Origin: Candidatus Saccharimonadales bacterium
Lineage (GTDB): Bacteria; Patescibacteriota; Saccharimonadia; Saccharimonadales; EFPC-124
Reading direction: 5' to 3'
Assembly: GCA_035457485.1 (NCBI GenBank)
Contig: DATIBO010000006.1
Location: 178,659 to 242,658, forward strand
DNA length: 64,000 nt
In this document: positions 34,530 to 58,023 of the stretch, piece after piece
Position numbering within the stretch: the stretch's first letter is position 1
Layout of the letters: every line of letters starts with the position of its first letter
Made by a program: the position numbers and the translations under genes
Notes under the pieces: model-generated
What the model was told of the DNA's origin: nothing
The model's database searches: none
What the model saw: only the letters and a program-made list of their open reading frames with translations

Positions 34530-34605
34530 TGGTGGGGGCGGTTGGAGTTGAACCAACCACCAAGCGGTTATGAGCCGCCTGCTCTAACCGATGAGCTACG
34601 CCCCC
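34530..34605 (-). tRNA. tRNA(CAT), probably tRNA-Ile2 (lysidine) type; could be Met
   Basis: Reverse complement gggggcg/ta/gctc-atcggtta-gagc/a/ggcgg-CTCATAA-ccgct/tggtg/gttgg-ttcaact-ccaac/cgccccc/a/cca, 76 nt. The anticodon arm AGAGCAGGCGGCTCATAACCGCTTGGT resembles E. coli tRNA-Ile2 as I recall it. Confidence 0.85.
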
Positions 34606-36720: not shown

Positions 36721-36795
36721 CGCGGGGTGGAGCAGTGGCAGCTCGCGTGGCTCATAACCACGAGGTCGTAGGTTCGAATCCTGCCCCCGCTACCA
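36721..36795 (+). tRNA. Initiator tRNA-fMet (CAT)
   Basis: cgcgggg/tg/gagc-agtggca-gctc/g/cgtgg-CTCATAA-ccacg/aggtc/gtagg-ttcgaat-cctgc/ccccgct/a/cca. Near-identical in its ends to E. coli tRNA-fMet (CGCGGGGUGGAGCAG...CCCCCGCAACCA). Position 1:72 is unpaired (C x U). Confidence 0.85.
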
Positions 36796-38584: not shown

Positions 38585-39970
38585 TTACTTAATTTTTGCA
38601 CACGCAACACGTACAGCTTCGCTCCAGGTTGGAAAGGCGTGGATCGTGCTGGCGACTTCTTCGGCGGTTAAGCCCATCTGAATCGCCAAAGTTAACTCGT
38701 GGATCATCTCGCCTGCGCGTGGACTGACAATGCTAGCCCCTAAAAGTGTGCCGTCTTTGTCGGTTATAACTTTTACAAAACCTTCTTCTACGTTGCTGGT
38801 GTTTGCACGACCAATAATGCTGATCGGGGCGATTGATTTTTTAATCTTTAAATCGCGCTTTATGCATTCGTCTTCGCTCATCCCAACAGATGCAACTTCG
38901 GGCGATAAGAATATACAGCGGGGCACAGCACGGTAGTCGGCGGCGACTTTTTGCTTTTTCCACATGTTATTCGCAGCTAAGCGGCTTTGGTAAATTGCCA
39001 TGTGGGTAAACTGAAACGGTCCAACGACGTCACCTGCTGCGTAAATGTTTTTAGCGGTAGTCTGCATAAATTCGTTAACTGCTATTGCTTTTGGAGTATA
39101 CTCAACCCCAGCGTTTTCTAGGCCTATATCCACGTTGGCGATCTTGCCCGTTGCTAGCAAAACCTCATCGACTTTAACAGTTTTGGTTTCACGGCCCTGC
39201 TGATAAGTCACGCGTTTTGCCAGTCCCTCTTTTGTAACCGATATAACTTTAGTGTTTGTGAGAACGCTGATTCCACGATCTTGTTCAAAATGACTTCTTA
39301 CAAGGTCACCGACTTCTTGGTCTTCTTTCATAAGTAGTCGCGAAGTAATATCTGAGATGTAAATTTTTGTGCCAAAGATGCTAAAAAGTTCGGCAAATTC
39401 GCAGCCAATTGCACCGCCTCCAATTATAAACAACGATTTCGGCGGTCTTGTAAGGTTTACGGCTTCGCGAAAAGTTATAAAACCAGCCTTTTCTAATCCT
39501 TCGATGGGTGGAATAAAATTACTAGTGCCAGTAGCGATCAAGAAATTCTCGGCTGAAATATGTTTGCGATTAACTGTAATCTCGTGGCTAGAAATAAAAC
39601 GCGCCGTACCGTTTATAACGGTTATTCCCTCGGACTCATAGACCTTTTTACCTTGCCATGTCCCAGTACGATACACTGCAAGGTCTTTCCACGCTTTGAT
39701 TGACGGGTAGTTGTAAGTTAGAGTCCCGCCACGAATGCCAAATTGCTGGCCGTTTCGGGCTGCATCGTAGATTTCTGCAGCGTGCAGTAAAGATTTTGTT
39801 GGCACGCAGCCCCAGTTAGGGCATTCACCACCCATCTCGGCGGCCTCTACTACGGCCACTCTTTTGCCTAGATGTTTACTAATGTGTGCTGCAACGCTTC
39901 CGCCACCCCCGCTGCCAATTACAACAAGGTCGTAGTCGTATTTTGGTCGCCTGCTTAGTTTGAGTTTCAT
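38585..39970 (-). CDS. FAD-dependent pyridine nucleotide-disulfide oxidoreductase (Lpd/GR/MerA class)
   Basis: GSGGGG FAD motif, redox-active CPNWGCVPTK, a second GGGAIGCEFA dinucleotide fold, and a C-terminal HAFPT dimerisation motif. Confidence 0.8.
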   Translation of the reverse strand: MKLKLSRRPKYDYDLVVIGSGGGGSVAAHISKHLGKRVAVVEAAEMGGECPNWGCVPTKSLLHAAEIYDAARNGQQFGIRGGTLTYNYPSIKAWKDLAVYRTGTWQGKKVYESEGITVINGTARFISSHEITVNRKHISAENFLIATGTSNFIPPIEGLEKAGFITFREAVNLTRPPKSLFIIGGGAIGCEFAELFSIFGTKIYISDITSRLLMKEDQEVGDLVRSHFEQDRGISVLTNTKVISVTKEGLAKRVTYQQGRETKTVKVDEVLLATGKIANVDIGLENAGVEYTPKAIAVNEFMQTTAKNIYAAGDVVGPFQFTHMAIYQSRLAANNMWKKQKVAADYRAVPRCIFLSPEVASVGMSEDECIKRDLKIKKSIAPISIIGRANTSNVEEGFVKVITDKDGTLLGASIVSPRAGEMIHELTLAIQMGLTAEEVASTIHAFPTWSEAVRVACAKIK

Positions 39971-39979
39971 AACTATCCT

Positions 39980-40261
39980 TTATCCTATTATACGATGATG
40001 CAAGTAAATGTAAGCTGCATCCGGATTATAAAGCTTTAAATATTTTGCGGCCTCGTGGCGAATATCTTTGCTGGTGATTTCGTGCTTGGGGGCTAACCAA
40101 GGTTCAATATCGCGGCAAACACGATCGGCTGTTACTTCTGCTTCACCCGAATGCGAGCTAACCGTCAAACAAGATGAGTATATGCTTGCGTAAAGCTTGC
40201 GCTCGTCGTAGGGTTCGTTAACGCCGGGCAATCGCTTAATTATAGTTGGGGCTGCGCTCAT
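39980..40261 (-). CDS. ATP-cone-domain-like small protein
   Basis: I trimmed the track ORF (39980..40372) to ATG 40261 because its 5' part overlaps the CcdA gene. IIKRLPGVNEPYDERKLYASIYSSC resembles the ATP-cone N-terminus. Confidence 0.4.
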   Translation of the reverse strand: MSAAPTIIKRLPGVNEPYDERKLYASIYSSCLTVSSHSGEAEVTADRVCRDIEPWLAPKHEITSKDIRHEAAKYLKLYNPDAAYIYLHHRIIG

Positions 40262-40263
40262 GG

Positions 40264-40968
40264 TTAACCAAAATTTATTACGCCGTTGGCGATTAGGATC
40301 AAGATCCAGCCTAGTGCAACTAATAGTAGACCGAGCGTTAGGCGCATGCCACCTTTGCCTTCTTCTTTCCATTTTTGCACCGAACTTAGTTTTGCGCCGC
40401 TAGCAACCAAGCCCAAGATTATTAATAGTGGTGCAACAAAAATTAAGTTATATAGAACCATCAGGCCGAATGCAACCCAGTCAAAGTCAATACGCAAAAC
40501 TGTAATTATCGCCAAATAGGGTGCGCCGGTGCAGGGAAGCTCGACCGCTGCTACGAATGCACCAAGCAGCATCACCCCAATCACGGTCGTGCTGCTGCCC
40601 GACCAATCCTGGATTTTTTTGGCAAAAAAGTGTGGAATTTGCAGACTGAATCCTTTGCCATACCAAAAGTAGTCTTTAATTTCCAACATACCAGCCAGAA
40701 TTACCAAGATTCCAACCCCAATCGAGAGGTATTCGGCAATAACAATGGGAATTGCAGTAAAGAAGTAGACCAATCCCAGGCCGGCAACTAGGTATGTAAA
40801 AAAGATTGCAAACGTGTACGCTGCGCCAAGCAGGAGCATGCGTTTAACGGATTTTCCCGAGCCTAAAATCACCGAGATCATTAAAATTAACACGCCGATT
40901 GCGCAAGGGTTTATGGAATCAATTGCTGCGCTGACAACAACAAGCCCGAGTGTAGGTAGGTCTAACAT
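40264..40968 (-). CDS. CcdA/DsbD-type transmembrane thiol-disulfide electron transporter
   Basis: 234 aa, 6 TM helices. DSINPCAIGVL and ELPCTGAPY conserved Cys motifs. Confidence 0.7.
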   Translation of the reverse strand: MLDLPTLGLVVVSAAIDSINPCAIGVLILMISVILGSGKSVKRMLLLGAAYTFAIFFTYLVAGLGLVYFFTAIPIVIAEYLSIGVGILVILAGMLEIKDYFWYGKGFSLQIPHFFAKKIQDWSGSSTTVIGVMLLGAFVAAVELPCTGAPYLAIITVLRIDFDWVAFGLMVLYNLIFVAPLLIILGLVASGAKLSSVQKWKEEGKGGMRLTLGLLLVALGWILILIANGVINFG

Positions 40969-45480: not shown

Positions 45481-46413
45481 ATGACCTACTTAAACGCAAT
45501 TACCCCGATCAACATAAGCGAAGAAAAGCACAAATTTTTTAATAATAGTAATTATCAGCCGCAATTAGAATATAATTGGGACGAAAAATCTATCGAAGGA
45601 TATAAGCGAGTTTCGCCATTATTCTCTGATTTAGTAGATGCGATGGTGGCGCAAGATGTGCCGCAGATACATATTTACAGTCGAGAATACTTTGATGTAG
45701 ATTTTAGACCACAAGACTTAGAATTTGCGGCTAATCTTATAAGGCGCATTCCTGAAGCGTCGAATGGGACGGCCGATGAGCTTGCTAAAATTTTTCAGTC
45801 TAAACTGGATGCTTTAAATATTGACTACAAGGTTGAGGTCGTTGATAAACATGGTTTTCAATGTCGACCTAATCATCCTGCTAAAAAAGTTGAGATTAGC
45901 AAATATTTACATTTGCAGTTTTTGTCAACCGAAGGCGTCGCCAGCCACGAACTTGTTCATGTGATTCGAGCCGTAAACGGTGATCATAATGGAATTGCTA
46001 TACAACATGACTACTTGCCAACAGAGGAAGGCTTATCTTGTTTGATCCAAGATGAATTACTGAAAGAGCCATCGGCATCGTCGTTTCAGCACGCGTTAGA
46101 GTTTTTGGCCGCTGATTTAAGTTCGAAAGCAAGTTTTAAAGAGGTATTTGATTTTTTGGTTTCGATGGGCGCCGACGAAGAAAGCGCTTGGCTGCGCGGT
46201 ATTAGGCAAAAATTCGGCGTAAAAGATACTTCTAAACCCGGCAGTCTAATGAAATCAGGTATGTATTTTTACCACGAAAGACTATTGAGCGAGCTAAGCA
46301 AACAGGAACTTGCTAGGTTGTTTGTGGGCAAAATCCCACAGCATCACTTAAGTAATTATCCTAAGTACAGCGGGGTAGTTCCCGAAGAAAAGATCTTGGA
46401 ACTCCTGGGCTAG
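45481..46413 (+). CDS. DUF1704-like putative metallopeptidase (HExxH; QEGLA-like motif)
   Basis: SHELVHVIRA and PTEEGLSCLIQ. Confidence 0.4.
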   Translation: MTYLNAITPINISEEKHKFFNNSNYQPQLEYNWDEKSIEGYKRVSPLFSDLVDAMVAQDVPQIHIYSREYFDVDFRPQDLEFAANLIRRIPEASNGTADELAKIFQSKLDALNIDYKVEVVDKHGFQCRPNHPAKKVEISKYLHLQFLSTEGVASHELVHVIRAVNGDHNGIAIQHDYLPTEEGLSCLIQDELLKEPSASSFQHALEFLAADLSSKASFKEVFDFLVSMGADEESAWLRGIRQKFGVKDTSKPGSLMKSGMYFYHERLLSELSKQELARLFVGKIPQHHLSNYPKYSGVVPEEKILELLG

Positions 46414-46483
46414 TCAATAACAGATCATCATGTTAAAATAGTGTTTGCCTGATGCGTGGCAGTTTTGCACGATCACGGCACTT

Positions 46484-46560
46484 GGCACCGTAGCTCAGAT
46501 GGTTAGAGCGTAGGACTCATAAGCCTAAGGTCACTGGTTCGATCCCAGTCGGTGCTACCA
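46484..46560 (+). tRNA. tRNA-Met (CAT), elongator-like
   Basis: ggcaccg/ta/gctc-agatggtta-gagc/g/tagga-CTCATAA-gccta/aggtc/actgg-ttcgatc-ccagt/cggtgct/a/cca, 77 nt. The T-arm region resembles E. coli elongator tRNA-Met. Confidence 0.85.
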
Positions 46561-48091
46561 AAATAGGATTTTTAGCGTCTTCGGACGCTATTTTCTTTAT
46601 TAACAGATAAGATTCTGCCAATTTAGCGGTTCTAAATCCCGTCTCACAATCGTATACAAGACCTTCTGGGAAGATTGCATCTTGAATACGCCTTTTGACC
46701 TCTATTGGTGCGAGGTTCCAAAATGATGCTGGATTGCTCATGAACAACAGAGCATTGTCTATTACTTGCTCCTTATCCTTGATATCGTCAGTAATCTCAG
46801 AGCGGCGTAATTCTATTTTGGTAATGTCGTTATCAACTTCTGCTAGTTTACGGTCTTTATCTGCTTCACTAATTTTGTTATCTATATACAAATCTAGTGT
46901 ACGAATACGTTTGTCCTGTAGGGCGTTTAGCTCACTGTCTAATGTACGCGAAAGGTTGTGTGCGTCTCGTGTTTCGTTATTCCATTCACGTAGCACGATA
47001 TGTTTAAACAGCTTCTGCGCGTCTTCTGTTGGTCGTACACGCTCCATTAAGTCCATGAAGTCCTGATGCACTAAGCCACGCATCTTGCTCACAGGCGCAC
47101 CAATTTCTTTAGCCCTACAAAACATGCAAGAATAGCGAGGACTCGGGCCACTGCGACCACGAGGAGAACTTCCAGTCATAGGTTTACCGCAGGTATGCTG
47201 CAGGAATCCGCTACGTAATGGCCATTCCTCTTCAGCAGAGCGGCTAAAGTTACGCAAGCTACCATTCAAGATTGCCTGATTACGGTAGTAAGTGGTCTCA
47301 CTAATGATGGGCTGGTGTATACCCTGAATTAGCCTGCCGCCTATATAGTCGGAAGTTACGAATCCAGCATAAAGTGGGTTACCTAACATGTCCTTTACCA
47401 TCTGCCATGTTCGCATGCCATTCTTTCGACTACGAATACCAATCTTGTACGCGAAATCACGAGCATTCTGTACCGTATAAGCACCCGTAGAAAACTCTTC
47501 TAGCAGCTGCTTCATCTTTGGGGCATCGTCATTAGGTTCGATAGTCACAATACCTGTTGCTGTCCTAATACGCCTGTAGCCAACGGGTGCAGCATGAGGC
47601 CAAGCCCCTTGCTCGAGACGAGCTATCATACCGCCCGTCGTACGAGCTAATCGAATCTCATTATCAAACTCCGCAAATGCTGCAAGCATACTTTCCATCA
47701 AGTTGCCCATAGGGTCATCACTGATAGGCTCGGTTACCGATACTACTTTGATTCCTAGCTTTTTCAGTTGTGCTTTGATGATATGGTGATATTCACTCTT
47801 ACGAGCTAACCTGTCCACCTTCCAGATAATGCAGTGAGATATTTTGCCTTTGTTTTTAGCACAGTAATCAAGCATCGCTGCTAGTTTTGGACGGTCTATG
47901 AGTTTCGCAGATACACCTTCTTCACGAAATACATTCTCATTAGGCAATTCAATGCCATTTGATTTAGCGTAACGCATACAGGCATCGGTTTGACTATCCA
48001 AACTGGTACCTTTTACTTGGTCATCACTCGATACTCGTACGTATGCAACTGCCTTCATAATTTCTTCGGTATTTTTAGAACTTTTACTCAT
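46517..48091 (-). CDS. Large serine recombinase (integrase)
   Basis: Resolvase catalytic N-terminus AVAYVRVSSDDQ, a recombinase domain, a Cys-containing zinc-ribbon-like segment (HTCGKPM...YSCMFCRAKE), and a coiled coil (LDSELNALQDKRIRTLDLYIDNKISEADKDRKLAEVDNDITKIE). The last 44 nt overlap tRNA-Met. Confidence 0.9.
   Translation of the reverse strand: MSKSSKNTEEIMKAVAYVRVSSDDQVKGTSLDSQTDACMRYAKSNGIELPNENVFREEGVSAKLIDRPKLAAMLDYCAKNKGKISHCIIWKVDRLARKSEYHHIIKAQLKKLGIKVVSVTEPISDDPMGNLMESMLAAFAEFDNEIRLARTTGGMIARLEQGAWPHAAPVGYRRIRTATGIVTIEPNDDAPKMKQLLEEFSTGAYTVQNARDFAYKIGIRSRKNGMRTWQMVKDMLGNPLYAGFVTSDYIGGRLIQGIHQPIISETTYYRNQAILNGSLRNFSRSAEEEWPLRSGFLQHTCGKPMTGSSPRGRSGPSPRYSCMFCRAKEIGAPVSKMRGLVHQDFMDLMERVRPTEDAQKLFKHIVLREWNNETRDAHNLSRTLDSELNALQDKRIRTLDLYIDNKISEADKDRKLAEVDNDITKIELRRSEITDDIKDKEQVIDNALLFMSNPASFWNLAPIEVKRRIQDAIFPEGLVYDCETGFRTAKLAESYLLIKKIASEDAKNPILVAPTGIEPVTLGL
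46573..46598 (+). terminator. tRNA-Met intrinsic terminator (UUCG-loop hairpin)
   Basis: tagcgtc-ttcg-gacgcta followed by tttt. It lies inside the recombinase ORF on the opposite strand. Confidence 0.65.
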
Positions 48092-48295
48092 CTAATTATA
48101 CCTCGTTTGCGTAACTTTTAGAACCTCAAATTGTGACACATTCCTGAGGAAAGCTCTTGCAATGGCCGTAAAATCTAGAACCGCCACTGCCAGCGATTCG
48201 CCGGAGCTATACTGCGATGTTTTACCGATTACTTTCTTGGCTTCATCTACTGATATAGGCGTAAGTTCGCTTACGGAATCAAGACTAAACTCCAT
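48092..48295 (-). CDS. Small hypothetical protein immediately upstream of the recombinase (candidate accessory/directionality factor)
   Basis: I prefer ATG 48295 (MEFSLDSVSE..., 67 aa), preceded by AAGGAG with a 7-nt spacer, over the track start at 48343. Its stop abuts the recombinase start. Confidence 0.4.
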   Translation of the reverse strand: MEFSLDSVSELTPISVDEAKKVIGKTSQYSSGESLAVAVLDFTAIARAFLRNVSQFEVLKVTQTRYN

Positions 48296-48422
48296 TACTT
48301 TGCTCCTTATCCCGCTTGTGAAAGATACCAGTTGTACCCTCATATTCCCGCATGGTTTTGAAGATAGCTTCTAACAGTTCTGCGAGTGTTATACGCTCAT
48401 CTTCTGGTTGTTGGTTGGTCAT
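48285..48422 (-). CDS. Unannotated 45-aa ORF
   Basis: AAGGAG, a 7-nt spacer, then ATG at 48422. MTNQQPEDERITLAELLEAIFKTMREYEGTTGIFHKRDKEQSNGV. Its stop overlaps the next start. Confidence 0.35.
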   Translation of the reverse strand: MTNQQPEDERITLAELLEAIFKTMREYEGTTGIFHKRDKEQSNGV

Positions 48423-48750
48423 TCTTAACTCCTTTAGACCGCACCAAACTGACACCTGCATATTGAGGCGTGCTGCATGGTTGATATTAAATATTTCGGA
48501 ATAGCAAACCCCACAAACGAGACGCTAGAACTCGCTGAAAATAAAAAATGCCCGATTCGAGGCTTGTTACCTGAAGGGCTAATTGTGAGTATAGACTTGA
48601 CCGAGTTGGTCTACGAAGTTGCTTCGTTTACTATGTGAGTATTATACCAAACCATAAGCAAAAAGTCAATAGCTACAGTAACACTTATGACCTCTGGTAA
48701 AAATGTGTTGTAATTTATGACAAGATACATGCAGACTACCATGCAATATA

Positions 48751-49638
48751 ATGATTTACAGAGTGACTGATTTATTCAATAACAGAGAGATTGCGGTAGG
48801 GCTATGGCTGATGGTACTGATAGTCTTTGCTGCTAGTAAAAAGGAAGTACGTTCATCATTTAAGGACGTTCTTAAAGCATTCTTCACGCCTAAAATAATC
48901 ATACCGTTATTACTGTCATTCACGCCAAGCGTATTGGTCGTATGGCTATTGGCATATTTAAATCTTTGGGACTTGTCTGTACTCAAAGAAACAATCTATT
49001 GCGTTATCGGTACAGGCATCATTATGTTTGGTAAGTTCAATAGCGTTAAAGATTTGAAGTCACTATACAGGCAAACCGCAAAAGAAACCCTAGCATTAGT
49101 GGTCTTGCTGGAGTTCATTATTTGGCTTTATGTATTTCCTTTGTGGGTTGAGCTGCTACTGGTGCCGTTCGTAACTTTGGTAGTGCTGTTAGCGACAGTG
49201 GCAAAGTACATGAAAACGGACGGTATAGAGTTAACGCGCAAAGTGCTAAATGGTACGCAAGTATTTATTGGCCTGCTTATACTGCTATTCGCATTTATAG
49301 GCTTTGCGAAAAGTCCTGCAACATTATTTACCCTGCAGAATCTAGAGCTGTTTTTGCTGCCTATTATCCTTTCATTAACCTTCGTACCTTCCGTGTACTT
49401 CATAGCGTTGTATAGCAAGTATGAATTGGTATTCAATCGAATTAACTACCCCATGAAACTGAACCGTAAAAGCAAGCGGGCTATCAAACTAGCAGCTATC
49501 AGGCGCTGCGGCCTGAGCGTGTATGTTACAGGCGAAATGATACGTCATTTGGCAATCAACTTAACCACTGACACCACCAAGGCTCAAGCCCTAAAGCTCA
49601 TAAAAACCTTTGACCCAAAGCAACCATCATTCTTATAG
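48751..49638 (+). CDS. Orphan polytopic membrane protein (about 7 TM) with a basic soluble C-terminal tail
   Basis: 295 aa with no recognisable motif. Confidence 0.55.
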   Translation: MIYRVTDLFNNREIAVGLWLMVLIVFAASKKEVRSSFKDVLKAFFTPKIIIPLLLSFTPSVLVVWLLAYLNLWDLSVLKETIYCVIGTGIIMFGKFNSVKDLKSLYRQTAKETLALVVLLEFIIWLYVFPLWVELLLVPFVTLVVLLATVAKYMKTDGIELTRKVLNGTQVFIGLLILLFAFIGFAKSPATLFTLQNLELFLLPIILSLTFVPSVYFIALYSKYELVFNRINYPMKLNRKSKRAIKLAAIRRCGLSVYVTGEMIRHLAINLTTDTTKAQALKLIKTFDPKQPSFL

Positions 49639-49657
49639 CCCGACTTTACCAGAATCG

Positions 49658-49691
49658 CCTCTGAGCCTGATTCAAATTAGGTGTTTTTATT
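49658..49691 (+). terminator. Intrinsic terminator, copy 1 of a repeated cassette
   Basis: cctctgagcctgattcaaattaggtgtttttatt. Stem gcctga/ttaggt (with G-U pairs) plus a T-run. Confidence 0.55.
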
Positions 49692-49764
49692 TCTCGGATG
49701 AGTTACACCTCAATCAAACAGATTTATTGTATAATTTACTCTAGAAATACTTGCGTAATTTCCT

Positions 49765-52700
49765 ATGACAAAAATACCAGTATCTATTAGCCAATTAGCA
49801 AAATACGGACTTGATTACGTAAGCCTGATTTCAAGTAGTGCCTCCAGAAGCCGACCCGTTAAGACTGAGCAGATGGATGCTGATTTACTTTCTATTCCAG
49901 ACTTGATTTTTAAAAGTGAAGTTGACTCCATAACGATTGATTTAGTCACGGCTCTGGATAAACAGTTTGACCCGAGTATACCGAACGAGGAAAAGAGCGA
50001 TGAGCAACGACAAGCTGAATGGCGTGTTGAACGGGACAGGGGTATCTTAAATAAGATTCAAGAAATAGACACAAAGATTAGAACCGATGAGTATACGAAA
50101 CGAGTAGTTTTACAAACTGGCTTTATCTCATTTGAGGCAAAACGTTACCTTGAGTCTGATTTTAATGAAGAGTATGAGATATACGATGCTCCGTTGTTTC
50201 AGGTTCCAGTAGCGGCTATAAACTTCAAATATACCCCTGAGGGCGTAACAGTAATTATCGACCTACCCGATAACTATGTAGAGATTCTAAACGGCCCACT
50301 AAAGAACTTCTTGCCTCAGCAGTATTTTGATAAAGTGTTCAAGTTTATAGCGGATTCAGAAGCGGAAGAGAAAACCATGCTTCCTCTTGCCGATGATTTT
50401 ATTCAAGAGTTGTGGTCAGTAATCAGAGTTCAGTTAGATGGATTAGATGCTAAGTCGATATCTGAAGCCCCTAGTTTTGCAACTAGCATTGTCGCCATTA
50501 CCAATAAGACAAACCACTTTCTTGCCGAAGACCTAAAGGCTATCGCTGCACTAGAAGATGAAGAGTTGCTAGAAACGTCGTTAGGTGGTTGGGTGTCTGA
50601 TGAAGATATGGCGATTGAACAGGCGGTTTCTGATGATGGCAGTACAGAGATATTCTTTCCGTTTGATTATGACAAGTATCAGCTAAAAGTTTTAGGTATC
50701 ACTGCAAATAAAGCAGTTATTGTAGAAGGTCCTCCAGGAACTGGAAAATCACAAACAATCTCAAACCTACTCGTGCATCTTGCAGCCACGGGCAAGCGGG
50801 TATTATTTGCGAGTCAAAAAGACCAAGCAATACGTGGAGTCAAAGATAAGCTAAAGACATTGGACGTGCCGTTTTTATATGGCTATATTCCAGACAAAAC
50901 ATCCAAGCTATACACAGAAGATGATGAAAAAGACAGTGCGGCAAATACACTCCTAGCTCTTAATAGAGAGTTCCAGAAAGGAAAAGTTGGCGACTTAAAA
51001 GAGCCTCTAGCGTTGCTTGCTAACCGTTCGAATATTTTTGTAGAGAACCTGAATAATGAACGTTCTATCTACGCCCTATTAGAAGAACGTAGAAGCTTGA
51101 GCTACCTTGACTCTTTTCATCCGTACGAAATTGACAGCGGGTGGTATAGCCAATGTGGTTTATTGGAAGATACCATTAGCGGGCTGGAAGCTAGTGTTAA
51201 CAAATACGAAAAGACTCACGAGAAGTTTTTAAGGGCAGCAAACAAAAAGTTTGAAAATCTAGAATTGGATTATCAGGCGACTATAGACTCAATTGAAAAC
51301 ATCTACTCATACTTTAAGGAAAATATGCCTGAGCGGGCTGGTTGGATAGGTGGCAAAGTTAATGAAATGAAATTGCGTAATGCCCTGAAAGAACATGGCC
51401 GTACCCTTTTGCAAGAGATTTACGTAGAAGTCGAAAAGATACTATTCTCTGATAATACGAAGTCTGCTCGATTGCAGTTACTTGATAGTCTGTCGGATTA
51501 CTTTGTTTATGGTAGCGAGTTACAAGCAATATCAGAAAGTCGCTCTTCGCTTAACGAATTACTATCGAGTAAAGAAATATCACCGACCACATATACCGCT
51601 CTCAAAAAGGTAATCTCTGAGAATAGCAAGGAAAAGGTATTTAACGACCTAACTAGGTATAACGAAATTACCGAACAGATAGAAGAAATGTCTTTGTATT
51701 CAGCGAATGAACTTAATCGAGAAATCAAAGATATTCGCAAGTTTTACAGAACCAATATCACAAACTATGTGCGCAATCGTATCCTGACTAGAATTGGTGA
51801 AGCGAATAATAGCAAAGATGTACGAGCTACTTTAGCTCAGGTAGCTAGAAGTCTTACAAAGAGCAAGAAAGCTAATAAAACATTCGATAGATTGAAGCAC
51901 AATGAAGACAACTTCAGCGCCATGTCTAAGGTCTTGCCAATCTGGATGATGAGTCTAGACGATGTTAGTCGTATAGTGCCTCTAGAGAAGAATGCCTTTG
52001 ATTATGTAATTATCGACGAAGCGTCACAGTGTAATTTTGCCTATGCGTTTCCAGCCATGTTCCGTGCCGAACATACAATTTTCTTTGGCGATACTTTGCA
52101 GATGCGTGACGACAACATTATGTTTAAGTCGAACGACCAACTCAATGCCATTGCTAAGAAGCATAAGATACCCGAGGTTTATCAAATTAAGGCCGAGGAA
52201 GACACCGTAAAATCTGTAATGGATATTGCTCATCTAAACGGCTTTATGACCACAACGCTCAAGTACCATTACCGTTCACCAAAAGAACTTATAGGGTTCT
52301 CGAACGAGTCCTTCTACGAGCCAATCGGTAGGAAGTTAGAGGCAGTGAACGACAATATAGTTCCGTATAAAGATACTGGACGTGTCCTCCTTACTCACAT
52401 TGTGAAGCCAGATGACGGCGAAGAAACATCTGATAAAACTAACTTCGCCGAGATACGCAAGATTCAAGAACTGGTAGACGAGATTAAGAATGACCCCGTT
52501 CTAAAAGATAAGTCCATCGCTATCTTGACCTTCTTTAACGAGCAGGCCGAGCTGATTCGAAACGCTATAAAAGACGACGATATCAAAGTGTCTATTATTG
52601 ACGGCATTCAAGGTGACGAGCGTGATATCGTAATTTATTCATTTGTTATTAAAGACCCTAGCGATAAAAAGCGTTATATCGCTCTAACTGGTGAAGGCGG

Positions 52701-53646
52701 CGAGATTCGCAAAGACATTGCTGCTGGTCGTGTTAACGTTGCGTTTAGCCGAGCCAGGTTACAGGTTCATACTGTTACATCATTAGCCCCTGAACTATGG
52801 CCAGAGGGTATTTGGATTAAGCGGTATCTGGAGTATGTCGAAACTAGCGGTATAGTTAACCGTCGTCATAGTAAGTCAGAGCAACAGTTTGACTCTAACT
52901 TTGAAGAAAAGATATTTAGCTATTTGGCGAAAGAGCTGGATGCTAGTGAGTACACCCTAGAAACTCAAGTTGAGTCTCTCGGATTTAAGATTGATTTAGT
53001 AGTTTGTCGTAACGGCAAGAAGCTAGCTATTGAGATGGATGGCCCTTCCCACTTTGAAGGTGGAGATGGCCAGGTATATGTAAAGGATGACTGGGACAGG
53101 CAGGGTGCTCTTGAAACAGCTGGATGGAACTTTTACCGTATCTCATACTTTGATTGGACGAAAGACCAAGAAGTTGAGCAAAAAGCACTTAGCGAATACA
53201 TACAACAGTACTTTGCAGATAAGAGCACCTCGAGCAAAACGACTGTATTGAAAGAGCTTGAAAAAGAAACGGTTGCTCCAGAAGAAGCTCCTAAGGATAT
53301 GTATGTAACTGACTTTTCAGATGAGCACGTGGATAATGTTAGTCCCGTTCAAGCTGCTCATGTGACTAGTAATGTGAAGCGTACTGACACCGCCAAGACT
53401 ACACCCGCTAAACCAACATTCTCAATAGGAGACCGTGAGGTTAATCAGGAGGATTTTGAAAGATATCTTAGCAGCCGTCAGCAGAGTTATATTGAGATAC
53501 GATACCAATCTATGCGTGCTGGGTCGGCGAAATATTGGAGAACAATACGTCTTGATGGTTACGATGGCACGTACATGTATTCCAAGCAGGATAACGCACC
53601 TTACCCGATTAAATATCGTCGTGACCGAGTAATAGAGTTCAGATAA
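49765..53646 (+). CDS. DUF4011-like N-terminal region + Upf1/DNA2-type SF1B helicase + Vsr/DUF559-like endonuclease module + WYL-like C-terminal domain
   Basis: 1293 aa. YDAPLFQVPV (N-terminal); Walker A VEGPPGTGKSQT (about nt 50728); Walker B VIIDEASQC (about nt 52010); QGDERDIVIYS; GRVNVAFSRAR; then FEEKIFSYL...GFKIDLVV...KLAIEMDGPSHF; tail IEIRYQS...YWRTIRLDG...TYMYS...PIKYRRDRVIEF. Confidence 0.85.
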   Translation: MTKIPVSISQLAKYGLDYVSLISSSASRSRPVKTEQMDADLLSIPDLIFKSEVDSITIDLVTALDKQFDPSIPNEEKSDEQRQAEWRVERDRGILNKIQEIDTKIRTDEYTKRVVLQTGFISFEAKRYLESDFNEEYEIYDAPLFQVPVAAINFKYTPEGVTVIIDLPDNYVEILNGPLKNFLPQQYFDKVFKFIADSEAEEKTMLPLADDFIQELWSVIRVQLDGLDAKSISEAPSFATSIVAITNKTNHFLAEDLKAIAALEDEELLETSLGGWVSDEDMAIEQAVSDDGSTEIFFPFDYDKYQLKVLGITANKAVIVEGPPGTGKSQTISNLLVHLAATGKRVLFASQKDQAIRGVKDKLKTLDVPFLYGYIPDKTSKLYTEDDEKDSAANTLLALNREFQKGKVGDLKEPLALLANRSNIFVENLNNERSIYALLEERRSLSYLDSFHPYEIDSGWYSQCGLLEDTISGLEASVNKYEKTHEKFLRAANKKFENLELDYQATIDSIENIYSYFKENMPERAGWIGGKVNEMKLRNALKEHGRTLLQEIYVEVEKILFSDNTKSARLQLLDSLSDYFVYGSELQAISESRSSLNELLSSKEISPTTYTALKKVISENSKEKVFNDLTRYNEITEQIEEMSLYSANELNREIKDIRKFYRTNITNYVRNRILTRIGEANNSKDVRATLAQVARSLTKSKKANKTFDRLKHNEDNFSAMSKVLPIWMMSLDDVSRIVPLEKNAFDYVIIDEASQCNFAYAFPAMFRAEHTIFFGDTLQMRDDNIMFKSNDQLNAIAKKHKIPEVYQIKAEEDTVKSVMDIAHLNGFMTTTLKYHYRSPKELIGFSNESFYEPIGRKLEAVNDNIVPYKDTGRVLLTHIVKPDDGEETSDKTNFAEIRKIQELVDEIKNDPVLKDKSIAILTFFNEQAELIRNAIKDDDIKVSIIDGIQGDERDIVIYSFVIKDPSDKKRYIALTGEGGEIRKDIAAGRVNVAFSRARLQVHTVTSLAPELWPEGIWIKRYLEYVETSGIVNRRHSKSEQQFDSNFEEKIFSYLAKELDASEYTLETQVESLGFKIDLVVCRNGKKLAIEMDGPSHFEGGDGQVYVKDDWDRQGALETAGWNFYRISYFDWTKDQEVEQKALSEYIQQYFADKSTSSKTTVLKELEKETVAPEEAPKDMYVTDFSDEHVDNVSPVQAAHVTSNVKRTDTAKTTPAKPTFSIGDREVNQEDFERYLSSRQQSYIEIRYQSMRAGSAKYWRTIRLDGYDGTYMYSKQDNAPYPIKYRRDRVIEFR

Positions 53647-53677
53647 CAAGATTTAAAGGTCAAGTTTCCTTAAATCA

Positions 53678-53711
53678 CCCCTGAGCCTAAATCAAATTAG
53701 GCATTTTTATT
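53678..53711 (+). terminator. Intrinsic terminator, copy 2 of the repeated cassette
   Basis: cccctgagcctaaatcaaattaggcatttttatt. Stem gcctaa/ttaggc plus a T-run. Confidence 0.6.
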
Positions 53712-53806
53712 GTTGAGTAAAGTCTAAGTTCATATTTTGATTTACAGCGTAAGATTCGAATCATCTCCAGAGGTGATTTGCAGCATCTTTGTTATATAAT
53801 GAAAAA

Positions 53807-53948
53807 GTCTAGATTCAACAATTAGAGTATTAAGGTCAACAAGCCTTTCGTTTGAACCGTAAATACGGCAACTCCTTGCGAAAGCAGTTAGGTTCAAACC
53901 TGATTGTTGAGTCTAGACAACCCTAGCGAGGGGTTGTCGTTTTTATTT
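53807..53948 (+). ncRNA. Candidate structured RNA / cis-regulatory leader ending in an intrinsic terminator
   Basis: Nested helices: gtctagattcaacaat (53807-53822) pairs with attgttgagtctagac (53903-53918) over 16 bp with one G-U. gtttgaacc (53850-53858) pairs with ggttcaaac (53891-53899). There is a GAAA-tetraloop hairpin at 53877-53886. The terminator is gacaaccc/gggttgtc plus a T-run (53916-53948). Confidence 0.35.
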
Positions 53949-53962
53949 AAGGAGATACTGCT

Positions 53963-54226
53963 ATGACACAAGAAGAATTGAACTCGGTAACTAATGGAAT
54001 CCAGAAGAATCAAGAACGTTTATCAAACGAAGCGCAGCAAGATAAAGACCGTAATCTAGAACAGCAGAAACTTGAACTACAACAACAGCAACTTAACTTG
54101 CAGCAGCAACAACAGAACACAAACCAACAACTAGTCATTGGCGGCTTAATATTGGGTGGAATCCTTGTATTATCGATAGCTGTATATCTACTAGTTAAGA
54201 CGTTCAAGACTAATAAGAAGTCCTAG
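53963..54226 (+). CDS. Q-rich coiled-coil protein with a C-terminal TM anchor
   Basis: AAGGAG SD. 87 aa: QQKLELQQQQLNLQQQQQNTNQQ, then LVIGGLILGGILVLSIAVYLLV. Confidence 0.55.
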   Translation: MTQEELNSVTNGIQKNQERLSNEAQQDKDRNLEQQKLELQQQQLNLQQQQQNTNQQLVIGGLILGGILVLSIAVYLLVKTFKTNKKS

Positions 54227-54397
54227 TACGGTATATTACGGTATAACCAAAAGCTGCTAGAAATCCGTCGATTTACAGATGTTAAGGTATGGATTTTTCG
54301 TTTTCTGCTTATGGCATGCTTACGCTATAAAGTAGTACCCTAGCAGACAGGACTTACACGACACTTTTGTGGATGCCCCACCGTACCCCACACCTAG

Positions 54398-55315
54398 CTA
54401 TTCGATACCTAATTCTTCTTGCTGCTGCGACATCGCATAAACGACAAGCTCCGGACGTTTGTAGTACGAGGCTCGAACCACTTCAGCTTCGAATACAACC
54501 CGTTCCTTGAACAAGTGTTTGTAGCTTTCAATGGAGGCGCCATCCGCAACGGTGCATGTGAGTAGTGAAAACCTTGGGTCTAAATCATCTACCTTTATTT
54601 TCAGGACATCACCACGTGTACTCTGAAGCGATAATAGCTCGCCACTTAGTTTGATTCTGTCGCCATTATGTAGGTCTGGCAAAATCTTATCGTCTTCTGG
54701 TAAGTACTCGCCGACGTTGCGTTCTGTAATTTTCACGCCCTCGCTGGTGTTAATCGTCGGTTTTATTTCGATTGTTGATATGACGCCCTCGGTTATTGGA
54801 GCTAGAGCACGTCGGTACCGGCCACTCTCAACAATCCTTTTGAGTCTACTGATTTGCCGCGGTGATACTTTGGAATCGTTTGGTAGTTTGTTGCCATTCT
54901 TTAACTTTGCGCTCGTGCGTATTGCTCCTGTTATGTAGCCGATGATGAGACCGGCGACCGCCATGTCGACTGGATTCCTCGCAAAATAGTCGTTTACTGT
55001 TCTGTGTATTCCATGAATGTTCGAAAAAAAGGTGTTAGCGTCATTGAGAAGCTCGGGTGCCGCAATGCGCAAAAACTCAAGAAATGCCTGCACGTCAGTA
55101 AATGGTATCGGGTGAAGCGTTACCAGCGCATTAAATACTTCAATCGAGCCCTGCTGAACGCGAGTAGTCTTAATCTCGACTTCTTCGCCAAGATTGGCCG
55201 TTTCAAGAATGTCCTTAAGTAGTGAGTCAAACCCCGCAAACGACTCGCCAAGTAGCGTGAGATTCAAGCCGTCTTCAGGCCTGTACTCATAGCGGATAAC
55301 AAACGACTCTTTCAT
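54398..55315 (-). CDS. Orphan protein, about 305 aa, with one central hydrophobic helix
   Basis: Long ORF. I prefer ATG 55315 (MKESFVIRYEY...). No motif recognised. Confidence 0.5.
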   Translation of the reverse strand: MKESFVIRYEYRPEDGLNLTLLGESFAGFDSLLKDILETANLGEEVEIKTTRVQQGSIEVFNALVTLHPIPFTDVQAFLEFLRIAAPELLNDANTFFSNIHGIHRTVNDYFARNPVDMAVAGLIIGYITGAIRTSAKLKNGNKLPNDSKVSPRQISRLKRIVESGRYRRALAPITEGVISTIEIKPTINTSEGVKITERNVGEYLPEDDKILPDLHNGDRIKLSGELLSLQSTRGDVLKIKVDDLDPRFSLLTCTVADGASIESYKHLFKERVVFEAEVVRASYYKRPELVVYAMSQQQEELGIE

Positions 55316-55585
55316 AATGTTATGGCTTATTATCAATATTTTCCGAGATAATGTACAGCGTAAGCTGTTTGACGCATTATGGCACTGTTCAATTCTTGCT
55401 ACTTAAGACTCTATGAGGTAAGTGATTCGCATGCTCTGGTATATTTCAGACGCCACAATCAGTTCGCGTTTTATCTGGTTCCAAGTCGTCAATAGCGTCT
55501 CTACCAGAACTTATATTTATTGACTTCTGACACTGTTTGTATACACAGAGTAGGTCAAGCAGTATTGGGTGAATCTTGTTATTAT

Positions 55586-55969
55586 ATGCATATGATCAAA
55601 GTTATAGTCGCATGGCTCAGCGTATCATTGGTTGGTGTTTTGTTGGTGGTTTTGCTGCCCGATGACTTATTGGGTAACCAGATTGTCTTTAGACTAAGTA
55701 ACGAGCACGGCCCAACCTTGGCTGATAGTGTTGGCATTTTATGTATTTTAGGCGCATGGGTGTATTACTTGGCTAATCTGTGGATTCGTAGAAAAGCTCT
55801 TTTGGCTAAAAAAGCTACTTGGTGGTTGATAGGGTTTATTGTTTTGGGTGTTGTAGGATCTATAGTTGCGGCTACACAAAATGCAAATGGCTTTCTTATT
55901 GCCGTGAGTTCCATTTCACTGGTGGCGCAGATCATCCTCGGGATTTTAGCAGGGAAAGCCGATCGCTGA
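55586..55969 (+). CDS. Hypothetical 4-TM membrane protein
   Basis: The track start at 55520 is TTG; the first ATG is 55586 (MHMIKVIVAWL...). Confidence 0.4.
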   Translation: MHMIKVIVAWLSVSLVGVLLVVLLPDDLLGNQIVFRLSNEHGPTLADSVGILCILGAWVYYLANLWIRRKALLAKKATWWLIGFIVLGVVGSIVAATQNANGFLIAVSSISLVAQIILGILAGKADR

Positions 55970-56536
55970 TCCATCTAATAATAGCGAATTGTTTCTTATA
56001 AGTTTTGCAATATCTTTGTAATTATTTGTCCAAACTTCAGCATGCTCGTTTTTGTCGAGCTCTGCAAAGGTTTTGGAATCGCCCTTAAACATCATCAAAC
56101 GCTCCCAGCGAAGTTTGTCAGTGCCCTTAATTTCTTTGCCAATCACAACCGGAACTGTGTAAGAAAAGTCATGAGCCTTGCCAGATTCGTCAACGTAAGT
56201 TGCGGCAAGCTCAAAGTGTGCGTCACGGCATTTAAGCGTATCCACAATTTTAAGTAATTGCTCCACTGAGATTGTTTTGTCTGTGTAGGCCATAAACGGC
56301 CCAGGAAACCCAAGTTCGTCAATGTAAAAGCTGTGATCTTCGCGAATTACTGGTTTACCAGTGAGTTTGTGCGCTTCTACTGCCATCGCGCGGGCTATTT
56401 CTTGGCTAGTTGCCGCTTGAATCTCGGCGACATCGAGTTCAAGAGGCAAAACCTCGATGCCGTATTTTTTAAAAACCAAGTTTGCGGCATCAATTTTGCC
56501 TTGATTACTGGAAAGGAGGTAGATTTTGTTCGTCAT
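55946..56536 (-). CDS. Ham1/RdgB-family non-canonical purine NTP pyrophosphatase-like protein
   Basis: LLSSNQGKIDAA..., EIQ..., IREDHSFYIDELGFPGPF matches the ITPase family pattern. Confidence 0.65.
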   Translation of the reverse strand: MTNKIYLLSSNQGKIDAANLVFKKYGIEVLPLELDVAEIQAATSQEIARAMAVEAHKLTGKPVIREDHSFYIDELGFPGPFMAYTDKTISVEQLLKIVDTLKCRDAHFELAATYVDESGKAHDFSYTVPVVIGKEIKGTDKLRWERLMMFKGDSKTFAELDKNEHAEVWTNNYKDIAKLIRNNSLLLDGSAIGFPC

Positions 56537-56650
56537 AGTAGTATCCTTTAGGGCTGTCTCCTAAATTATCACATATGTCGTAAGATCGGCCGCACCATAT
56601 GTTGTAAATAATGACCTTGCTCTTACATGTTTCCGTGCCTACACTTAAAA

Positions 56651-57235
56651 ACAATGCAAGAACTTAACGAAAACCTAATCAAAGAAATTCATGATGTTGT
56701 ATTGGCGATTGAGCCGCACGACGAGATCGAAGCTTTGCAAAAATCCGAGAGCCTAGCCTGGATTAATTCTGGTGAAAACATTTTTCGTATTAAGAAACCA
56801 GACATTCCGCCTAAACATCTGGTTTCTTACTTTGTTTTAGTTGACCATGAGCATAAAAGTTTGTTACTTGTTGATCATATTAAGGCCCAGCTTTGGCTAC
56901 CTAGCGGTGGTCATGTCGAACTTAACGAGCATCCAAAGGTCACTGTTGAGCGTGAGGTTAAAGAAGAGCTCGGTATAAAGGCTGTGTTTTTAAAAAACTA
57001 TGATCGGCCATTTTTTATAACCGCTACTAAAACTGTTGGTTTAACGGCCGGCCACGTAGACGTGAGTTTGTGGTATTTGTTAAAAGGGAGTGTGCACGAT
57101 TTTTTAAATTTCGACAAACGTGAATTTAACGATATCGAATGGTTTAGCTTTGATGAGATCTTAAAATCGGACTTGATAATTTTTGACCCAAATATGCATA
57201 GATTTACGCAAAAGCTTATAAAACATTTGGCTTGA
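56651..57235 (+). CDS. NUDIX hydrolase
   Basis: Nudix box GGHVELNEHPKVTVEREVKEELGI. I trimmed the start to ATG 56651. Confidence 0.75.
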   Translation, partial: TMQELNENLIKEIHDVVLAIEPHDEIEALQKSESLAWINSGENIFRIKKPDIPPKHLVSYFVLVDHEHKSLLLVDHIKAQLWLPSGGHVELNEHPKVTVEREVKEELGIKAVFLKNYDRPFFITATKTVGLTAGHVDVSLWYLLKGSVHDFLNFDKREFNDIEWFSFDEILKSDLIIFDPNMHRFTQKLIKHLA

Positions 57236-57371
57236 CTTGCGATTTTAAAAAGAATAAGCTTAACTTAACGACCGCCAAAAAGCGGAGCAAAACAAAAATG
57301 GAGGGTGGTATGAAAAAAGAAATATCTGTAGTTTGTGTAAGCTCAGAATCCGTGATTAACGTTTTGGTTGC

Positions 57372-57935
57372 ATGAGCAAAATAGGCAAGCGGCTGGGACT
57401 GGTTTTAATTACAAACGTCTTAGTGCTTGTTGCGGCCGGTATGCTCGCGCCGATTTATGCGGTTTATGTGGAAAAGGTCGGCGGTGACATTTTAGATGTT
57501 GGAATTGCGGCGGCGCTTTTTGCTTTGGCGGCCGGGTTAACTTCACTGCTTGCTGGTAAGTATAGTGACAAGATTCGACACAAACAAATTTTGGTGGCAA
57601 TTTGTTATTTTTTAACTGGTGTAGGGTTTTTGGGTTATATTTTTGTGCAAAATATTTGGCAACTCTTTACTCTTCAGGCGTTTATCGGGCTGGTACAGGC
57701 GGGGTATGAGCCGGCATTTGATGGGATGTACACAAAATATTTAGGCAATGCAGAGCAAGCGAGCTCTAAATGGGGTCTATGGGAAGCGGGAAATTATTTT
57801 TCCATAGCTGGCGGTGCGTTTTTGGGTGCACTTATTGTAACTTGGTTTGGGTTTAATTGGTTGTTTGTTGGTATGGCAGCACTTTGTTTTATAAGTGCAT
57901 TAATTTTGGTTTTTAAAAAACGCAGTTTAAATTGA
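57372..57935 (+). CDS. Half-size MFS transporter (N-terminal 6-TM half only; possibly truncated)
   Basis: 187 aa. The motif-A-like GKYSDKIRHKQIL lies between TM2 and TM3. The ORF ends after about 6 TM helices. Confidence 0.5.
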   Translation: MSKIGKRLGLVLITNVLVLVAAGMLAPIYAVYVEKVGGDILDVGIAAALFALAAGLTSLLAGKYSDKIRHKQILVAICYFLTGVGFLGYIFVQNIWQLFTLQAFIGLVQAGYEPAFDGMYTKYLGNAEQASSKWGLWEAGNYFSIAGGAFLGALIVTWFGFNWLFVGMAALCFISALILVFKKRSLN

Positions 57936-58023
57936 AGTTTTATCGTTAAACTACCTAGCCCTCAAGCGCGGGTCCTCCGCGCCTGCGGCTTGTGCGGATC
58001 GCTTGACTAGGCAGTTAACGCTG

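Follow-up and report, generated by a model that had tools for sequence, protein, structure and literature searches.

A large serine recombinase gene probably split by integration at the 3' end of a tRNA-Met gene in a Saccharimonadales genome

In this study, we analyzed a stretch of 64,000 nucleotides (the window, whose positions are used throughout) from Candidatus Saccharimonadales bacterium, assembly GCA_035457485.1, contig DATIBO010000006.1, positions 178,659 to 242,658 of the forward strand. It carries an island of 8,946 bp (46561-55506), which lies at the extreme 3' end of a tRNA-Met(CAT) gene according to an alignment of the left and right attachment sites (attL and attR) of four islands. 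The large serine recombinase (LSR) gene of the island is very probably cut in two by its insertion at the tRNA 3' end. The attachment site of the free element (attP) would lie within the LSR's own coding sequence, 32 codons ahead of the stop. In the integrated state, the LSR body would run at attL into the antisense strand of the tRNA, gain 12 arbitrary residues and stop at the anticodon, and its true last 32 codons would be left at attR. Re-circularisation would rebuild an enzyme of 544 aa. An earlier note, made from the sequence alone, had proposed an island of about 9 kb at this tRNA, and the measured length agrees with it.

The recombinase gene, its stranded 3' piece and the island boundaries

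The integration target (46484..46560, plus strand) is a host tRNA-Met(CAT) gene of 77 nt with encoded CCA, recognized by ARAGORN and by Rfam family RF00005 (65.9 bits). The LSR lies on the minus strand (46517..48091), where its integrated, split form comprises 524 aa. Two Pfam domains were detected in it, Resolvase PF00239 (3.7e-32, residues 14-164) and Recombinase PF07508 (1.3e-6), and comparison with PHROG gave an integrase family (4.6e-71). A profile match to the C-terminal domain of the A118 integrase, 4KIS, was also obtained (2e-14), ending at profile position 433. The Y-x-R-V-S motif with the serine nucleophile is invariant in 27-33 aligned LSR homologues, and so are Cys300, Cys321 and Cys324 of the zinc-ribbon among the aligned homologues. 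An AlphaFold model of the 544-aa form has a confident core, with a mean predicted local distance difference test score (pLDDT) of 79, and its long helices at residues 356-452 represent the embedded coiled coil. Judged by these sequence and model features, the protein is a large serine recombinase with catalytic, recombinase and zinc-ribbon domains, the last with its coiled coil, and all these parts are intact in the integrated open reading frame (ORF).

The LSR and tRNA genes overlap by 44 nt, and the TGA stop codon of the LSR is the reverse complement of U33-C34-A35 in the anticodon loop. Residues 1-512 are encoded by the element or by the core shared between the island ends, and residues 513-524 (APTGIEPVTLGL) come from the antisense strand of the host tRNA; the protein ends in ...KKIASEDAKNPILVAPTGIEPVTLGL before the stop. 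The earlier note had described the LSR as reading through a terminator hairpin and 44 nt of the tRNA, and the coordinates and tail peptide given there were confirmed here.

In four homologues without a tRNA-like tail, the residues ...NPxLV are followed by W-N-x-I/L-x-x-E-L. The only match of this W-N motif to the window is at about 55405-55511 (minus strand), where it belongs to no long ORF (LVETLLTTWNQIKRELIVASEIYQSMRITYLIES, then a stop). By motif scan and tblastn, an orphan LSR 3' piece was delimited there (55403..55506, minus strand), which begins with the core-encoded L-V, continues with ETLLTTWNQIKRELIVASEIYQSMRITYLIES and ends with a stop codon at 55403-55405. The stranded piece holds 32 codons before its stop, lies 8.9 kb from the LSR body and is in frame with it across the core, and joining both island ends gives an uninterrupted ORF of 544 aa, compared with 524 aa in the integrated state. 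The same orphan piece was found at the far island end, always on the LSR strand, in every close relative fetched (L082, L083, L086-L090). Between the window and L082, the 33-codon piece shows 11 synonymous and one non-synonymous codon differences, which at the sequence level argues strongly for purifying selection, though part of this conservation (TGGAACC) may reflect constraint on a DNA site and not on the protein. Selection on the stranded piece implies that the full length of the enzyme is important, and integration of the circle would be the simplest reason. The left junction had been predicted to fall inside the 3' coding region of the recombinase, with C-termini differing between integrated and excised forms; the discovery of the missing piece at the other end, in frame, conserved and apparently under purifying selection, bears this out.

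The island ends were placed by aligning four islands, which are 8946 (window), 5681, 7601 and 6742 bp long. On the left side, conservation between the elements begins at 46561, directly after the CCA of the tRNA, and on the right side it ends at ...TCTACCA. The right boundary, left undefined in the earlier note, is therefore placed at 55506/55507 by the end alignment together with the motif scan. The direct repeat shared by attL and attR is 6 bp, CTACCA (46555-46560 and 55501-55506), and corresponds to the discriminator and CCA end of the tRNA. The crossover would fall inside this core, which must hold the crossover dinucleotide at attL, and the tRNA would stay wholly host-derived. Next to the attL core lies the P' arm (46561..46610), which encodes LSR residues ~495-510 on the minus strand and a terminator hairpin with T tract on the plus strand. 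The B' flank (55507..55540) is host DNA to the right of the island; it is unrelated among the four islands, and in L082 and L086 it is the native terminator hairpin. The predicted junction of the excised circle (attP) reads GGTTCCAAGTCGTCAATAGCGTCTCTACCAAAATAGGATTTTTAGCGTC, also given as ...AATAGCGTCTCTACCAAAATAGGATTTT..., and that of the empty site (attB) reads GATCCCAGTCGGTGCTACCAGAACTTATATTTATTGAC, also given as ...GTCGGTGCTACCAGAACTTATATT....

The entire tRNA is host DNA and no displaced tRNA 3' fragment is present at attR, which upholds the earlier view that the site is not a classic duplication of a tRNA 3' end. Moreover, the acceptor 3' half co-varies with the host 5' half (GGCACCG/CGGTGCT versus GGCGGCG/CGCCGCT), while the LSRs are 89-90% identical. 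This host-specific co-variation between the two halves of the tRNA agrees with a crossover at its extreme end. No att-type direct or inverted repeats were found by a repeat search of 46300-58000, because the core is only 6 bp long.

Related elements, half-sites and island cargo

A total of 120 best homologues, with identities of 43-92% and mostly from Saccharibacteria, were collected, and 105 of them end in a tail encoded by the antisense of a tRNA 3' half, such as ...LVAATGIEPVTSSL or ...RIELVTSGL before the stop. Species-representative genomes searched with an LSR alignment gave at least 80 relatives of 24-36% identity; those listed come from Saccharibacteria, other Patescibacteria, Acidobacteriota, Bacteroidota, Verrucomicrobiota and Proteobacteria. 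In about 55 of the 80 relatives listed, the gene extends antisense into a tRNA 3' region, and 12 kinds of tRNA are overlapped among the matches listed (Gln, Lys, Ser, Ala, Glu, Arg, Phe, Asn, Leu, His, Pro and Met). The replacement tails encoded by the hosts differ freely in length and sequence. Orphan pieces with the WN motif were found upstream on the LSR strand in seven distant loci, where the shared core measures 6-8 bp (7-12 bp as given for distant islands overall) and covers acceptor 3' strand, discriminator and CCA. A hidden Markov model of the 32-aa piece gave non-significant E-values against the distant loci, and these pieces were accepted by position, strand, shared core and the +5 offset described below. 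On this sequence comparison, the split architecture at tRNA ends is the rule for a large LSR clade across many bacterial phyla.

Related LSRs of 28-30% identity, ending at or within the antisense of tRNA genes, also occur in predicted proviruses of IMG/VR (L215-L218 and L220, 12-59 kb). In one of them (L220, 46 kb) the tail is unsplit, LVDLLTPSWNPTLAWL..., and it may represent a free phage attP form. Among about 50,000 records of isolated phages, no LSR exceeds 26% identity.

Unoccupied sites were searched with the pattern of the tRNA 3' 48 nt, which retrieved 120 metagenome loci. In about 116 of them the tRNA is directly followed by its native terminator hairpin without an LSR; an LSR abuts the tRNA in three (L151, L173 and L205), and a distant LSR lies nearby in L209. 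One locus, L121, aligns collinearly across the junction with the attB reconstructed for L082 (75% over 804 nt), in the order of tRNA, its terminator and then the same downstream gene.

The window island and those of L082, L086 and L087 have only the LSR (89-90%) and a small upstream ORF (55-82%) in common, and the other cargo differs. The host Pyr_redox gene is only 53-55% identical between the window and these three hosts, and both cargo and chromosomal context differ in each genome. A Pyr_redox/ATP-cone cluster is located just past attR in L082 and L086; in the window it lies inverted on the other side of the target tRNA, which points to a rearrangement breakpoint near the att site. All three tRNA-CAT genes lie within a span of 12 kb, namely 34530-34605 (minus), 36721-36795 (plus) and the target; the observation also takes in 38585-40968. 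The protein of 310 aa flanking the target (45481-46413, plus strand) resembles the MATCAP carboxypeptidase family, but only below the threshold.

Unsplit LSRs of 536-555 aa were found where two elements stand in tandem at one tRNA, with the distal body fused in frame to the P arm of the proximal element (L091 and L092). In L091 (4110-11431) an unsplit 555-aa LSR and a split 513-aa LSR share the same tRNA, and in L092 (1432-9463) an unsplit LSR is accompanied by a 77-aa LSR stub at the tRNA. The flank past attR in L087 (4675-4890) is a remnant of an older LSR 3' end.

The host arm and the element arm share a motif at different distances from the core. In the B half-site of attL (46536..46560), which is made of T-arm, acceptor 3' strand and ACCA, the T-loop GGTTC (46536-46540) lies 25 nt from the tRNA end. 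In the P half-site of attR (55477..55506), GGTTC (55477-55481) lies 30 nt from the core end and thus 5 bp further out. A weak colinear similarity of 55474-55500 to 46533-46580, pointed out in the earlier note as a hint of the right boundary, is real and is better read as the P-arm half-site with GGTTC shifted by 5 bp than as a decayed tRNA copy. The Trp-Asn codons of the orphan piece are almost always TGGAAC(C), the complement of GGTTCCA. The contrast of 25 nt with 30 nt recurs in all elements examined. Across loci, with a shared run of at least 7 nt required, 11 of 16 hits have an offset of precisely +5, and none of four opposite-strand control hits does. All reconstructed LSR genes read in frame, which is not independent evidence because it follows from the +5 offset and the usual G-x-E-P frame over the T-loop. 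In the A118/LI integrase, the motif of the zinc-ribbon domain likewise lies 5 bp further out in attP than in attB (PMC3783163). By analogy, the zinc-ribbon domain of the present clade would read the universal T-loop GGTTC in attB and a mimic of it in attP. Such reading would explain the codon-level conservation of W-N and, as it relies on a universal tRNA feature, the moves of the clade between at least twelve tRNA species; as a tentative extension, retargeting between tRNA genes might need only changed acceptor-stem contacts.

The terminator hairpin that had been noticed on the tRNA strand (46573-46598) was recovered by a terminator scan as a stem at 46573-46590 followed by a T tract, and it falls within the coding sequence of the LSR. 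In eight variants, changes on one side of the stem are compensated on the other, and at the protein level ASEDA, ADESA, APEGA or PANNA is read. The element thus appears to restore termination to a tRNA parted from its native terminator. Many native terminator regions after this tRNA (L094-L213, first 20 nt past CCA) contain AGAACC 7-19 nt beyond CCA, and they resemble the layout of the P' arm, with an A-rich stretch, a hairpin and TTTTCTTT. This motif and layout may mark a half-site on the B' side, or the P' arm may have evolved from such regions.

The small ORF upstream of the LSR (48092..48343, minus strand; 83 aa in the ORF list, 67 aa by the gene call of the source contig) abuts the LSR start codon, as if the two were translationally coupled, and its copies of 55-82% identity stand directly upstream of the LSR in L082, L086 and L087. 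It has no match in Pfam, PHROG or PADLOC and is a candidate directionality factor or regulator. Upstream of this pair lies a putative sigma-70-like promoter (48641..48669, minus strand), TTGACT-17-TATAAT, with 11 of 12 consensus matches and a TG, assigned by consensus match only. The remaining cargo starts with a polytopic membrane protein of 295 aa (48751..49638, plus strand) without a family match in Pfam, PADLOC or PHROG. It is followed by a protein of 1293 aa (49765..53646, plus strand), in which Pfam detects a superfamily 1 helicase (AAA_11/AAA_12) fused to an MTES_1575 restriction-endonuclease-like domain. This candidate defence gene matches PDC-S37 in PADLOC (4.3e-71, residues 539-1204 only), and partially Hhe (6e-28) and MkoC/MkoA (~1e-25). 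An intergenic region of 316 nt (53647..53962, plus strand) folds strongly, with a minimum free energy of -92.4 kcal/mol and a z-score of -6.3 against 100 shuffles; a long hairpin at about 53807-53918 is followed by a terminator, just upstream of the next ORF. No Rfam match was found for it, even at E 0.1. Next come a Q-rich protein of 87 aa with a C-terminal membrane anchor (53963..54226, plus strand; weak PHROG holin match, 9e-4) and, on the minus strand, a protein of 312 aa (54398..55336) with no family detected in Pfam, PADLOC or PHROG. A direct repeat of 59 nt, 75% identical, occurs at 49633-49691 and 53653-53711, each copy directly after a stop codon (of the membrane protein and the helicase), and looks like a reused terminator module that flanks the helicase gene and is unrelated to the att sites.

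With Pfam and PHROG, no phage, replication or conjugation genes were detected in the island, in line with the earlier description of its cargo. That description had also listed a structured RNA, which stands as far as folding is concerned but has no Rfam family, and had called the content defence-island-like, which is plausible for one gene, the helicase-nuclease.

Role of the exchanged C-terminus and alternative explanations

We infer that the full-length 544-aa form acts in integration, and that the tRNA-tailed 524-aa form must still be able to excise because small islands without detected replication or transfer genes have spread among distant hosts. Serine integrases carry out integration between attP and attB, and excision needs a directionality factor. 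It is conceivable, as a tentative proposal, that the exchange of C-termini records the state of the element within the enzyme and thereby sets the direction of recombination. The 544-aa enzyme, made only from the circle, would then integrate, and the 524-aa enzyme, made only from the chromosome and deprived of two terminal helices, would thereby be free to excise, possibly with the help of the small ORF transcribed with it.

Several observations weigh against the split-gene architecture or against a role of the exchanged ends. The AlphaFold model has pLDDT below 50 over residues 504-544 and gives no structural support for a role of the swapped C-terminus. Composition does not mark the island: a profile, which the earlier note had suggested as a test, showed no contrast between island and flanks, with GC contents of 0.39-0.46 on both sides. 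Empty sites, likewise suggested there, were found for the L082 lineage (L121) and in the metagenome loci, but none was found for the window's own lineage, whose nearest flank homologues (60-74%) are neither syntenic nor beside this tRNA. A search of the protein database with the reconstructed C-terminal 93 aa gave no free attP form of the close family, its 9 hits from 13 candidates being LSR stubs and orphan-piece ORFs, and unsplit genes of the close family were seen in tandem arrays only. The right-hand half-sites (P' and B') contain no clear, consistent mirrored GGTTC. Finally, the LSR of one close relative, P0007 (88%), is not located beside a tRNA. This relative (L298 8001-9700; also L299 and L300) has its own orphan piece, and in its flank past the core the likeness to the tRNA is confined to the final 8 nt (TGCTACCA), with GAACC absent; the junction is either a pseudo-attB site or the product of a later deletion.

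The split may also be real but functionally neutral, the LSR being a compact module with dispensable last 32 residues and equivalent forms, which we regard as possible though doubtful. The A118/LI integrase ends just after its zinc-ribbon domain, as does the 4KIS match at profile position 433, and both the lack of a confident AlphaFold structure for residues 504-544 and the free variation of the host-encoded tails would conform to neutrality. The strong purifying selection on the piece (11 synonymous versus 1 non-synonymous) does not conform to it, nor does the C-terminal extension of 25-45 aa after the WN motif, which stays open and in frame in relatives of 24-36% identity from other phyla, even if part of this may be constraint on the DNA site TGGAACC. 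Instead of an enzyme that can still excise, the integrated form may be a suicide-type trap as in the archaeal SSV-type integrases, in which the truncated enzyme is unable to excise and the element is at a dead end unless an intact copy acts in trans. This is unlikely in our assessment. The trap has a described archaeal precedent (PMC8371274), and decayed remnants are common: LSR 3' stubs of 74-127 aa with tRNA tails stand beside tRNAs and indicate that elements also decay in place, and the L092 stub and the L087 remnant add to them. A free attP form of the close family was, as stated, missing from the protein database. However, islands of 5.7-8.9 kb without detected replication, packaging or transfer genes carry LSRs about 89% identical in hosts whose housekeeping gene is about 54% identical, and for such LSRs to reach distant hosts, excision or transfer must have happened repeatedly. 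The integrated ORF also retains intact catalytic and recombinase domains together with the zinc-ribbon and its coiled coil, and the stranded piece is itself intact and apparently selected.

Two further explanations are very improbable and already contradicted. A classic tRNA island, in which a copy of the tRNA 3' half belongs to the element, strands are exchanged in the anticodon or T loop and the overlap is incidental read-through, would account for a recombinase gene abutting the tRNA, as in tyrosine-integrase islands, and for the weak tRNA-like similarity in the P arm (ctggttc...cagtcg), but it conflicts with the 6-bp core, the absence of a displaced tRNA fragment at attR, the co-variation of both tRNA halves in the host beside LSRs of 89-90% identity, and the serine instead of tyrosine type of the enzyme. 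A fixed chromosomal recombinase that overlaps the tRNA by chance, as an ORF-calling artefact or a domesticated invertase, would match the uniform composition and the presence of the arrangement in many Saccharibacteria genomes, but most copies of this tRNA lack the gene, cargo and chromosomal context vary per genome, the orphan piece marks precise far ends, and tandem arrays occur.

Significance and comparison with known systems

The split-gene architecture provides the same enzyme in two forms, integrated and free, which differ at the C-terminus only, and hence a natural experiment on the directionality of serine integrases; if the proposed switch is true, it is the topology of the integrase gene that would encode directionality. 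The position of GGTTC at 25 nt in attB and 30 nt in attP is a concrete, falsifiable rule, which, if true, explains the hopping between tRNAs. As a practical use, new integrases directed at conserved tRNA genes could be drawn from the clade, also for Patescibacteria, a group with few genetic tools. For annotation, it means that many 'recombinase' ORFs in metagenome-assembled genomes carry spurious tRNA-antisense tails and lack the true C-terminus.

The window LSR resembles the known large serine integrases (A118/LI, Bxb1, phiC31, TP901-1 and SPbeta SprA) in having resolvase, recombinase and zinc-ribbon domains with a coiled coil, and in its short att sites without long direct repeats and a half-site motif that lies 5 bp further out in attP. 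It differs from the phage enzymes in being at most 26% identical to any LSR in the ~50,000 phage records. Unlike other large serine integrases, it targets a tRNA 3' end with an attP inside its ORF, so that integration alters the protein, and the recognition motif proposed for its clade is the universal T-loop. In the TIGER survey of 2020, the use of tRNA genes by a serine integrase was described as 'not reported previously', tRNA genes accounting for 14 of its 297 cases, none of them validated (PMC7192596), and in a systematic LSR survey of 2022 the word tRNA is absent (PMC10083194). Our finding contradicts the statement that serine integrases are not known at tRNA genes (PMC7192596). The LSR clade, the split-gene architecture and the T-loop offset were not described in the literature searched, outside which other papers could exist, and the integrase clade is apparently undescribed.

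The closest likeness in principle is to the 'suicidal' tyrosine integrases of SSV type (SSV1, pTN3 and pT26-2), which also have attP in their own gene; integration at a tRNA partitions the gene and the circle restores it (PMC8371274; PMC7253208). These have been stated to be exclusive to archaea (PMC8371274), a statement that the present finding contradicts as far as gene-splitting integrases are concerned. The SSV-type enzymes are archaeal tyrosine recombinases, whereas the window LSR is a bacterial serine recombinase. Their split parts large functional portions, whereas the window LSR loses only the last 32 of 544 residues and gains a tRNA-antisense tail. Judged from its sequence, the window LSR works like this family but is no member of it. 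From tRNA islands of the Islander type, with a tyrosine integrase and a repeated tRNA 3' segment, the window island is distinguished by its serine recombinase, its repeat of 6 bp and the lack of a tRNA fragment at attR.

Among serine integrases, a single case of a recombination site within the integrase gene has been mentioned, the streptococcal IME_Spy2096_SNF2 (PMC5357655). Its target is the snf2 gene of another element and not a tRNA, which sets it apart by description, and the mention takes one sentence, in which no clade, stranded conserved piece or half-site geometry is described (PMC5357655).

A further parallel is found in integration-dependent immunity of mycobacteriophages, which shares with the window an attP in a coding sequence, a C-terminus changed by integration and a state thereby written into a protein. 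Broussard et al. (2013) reportedly found attP inside the repressor gene of these phages, with a degradation tag as the tail that integration removes. In the mycobacteriophages the affected protein is the repressor and the integrase is a tyrosine recombinase, whereas in the window it is the serine integrase itself that is altered.

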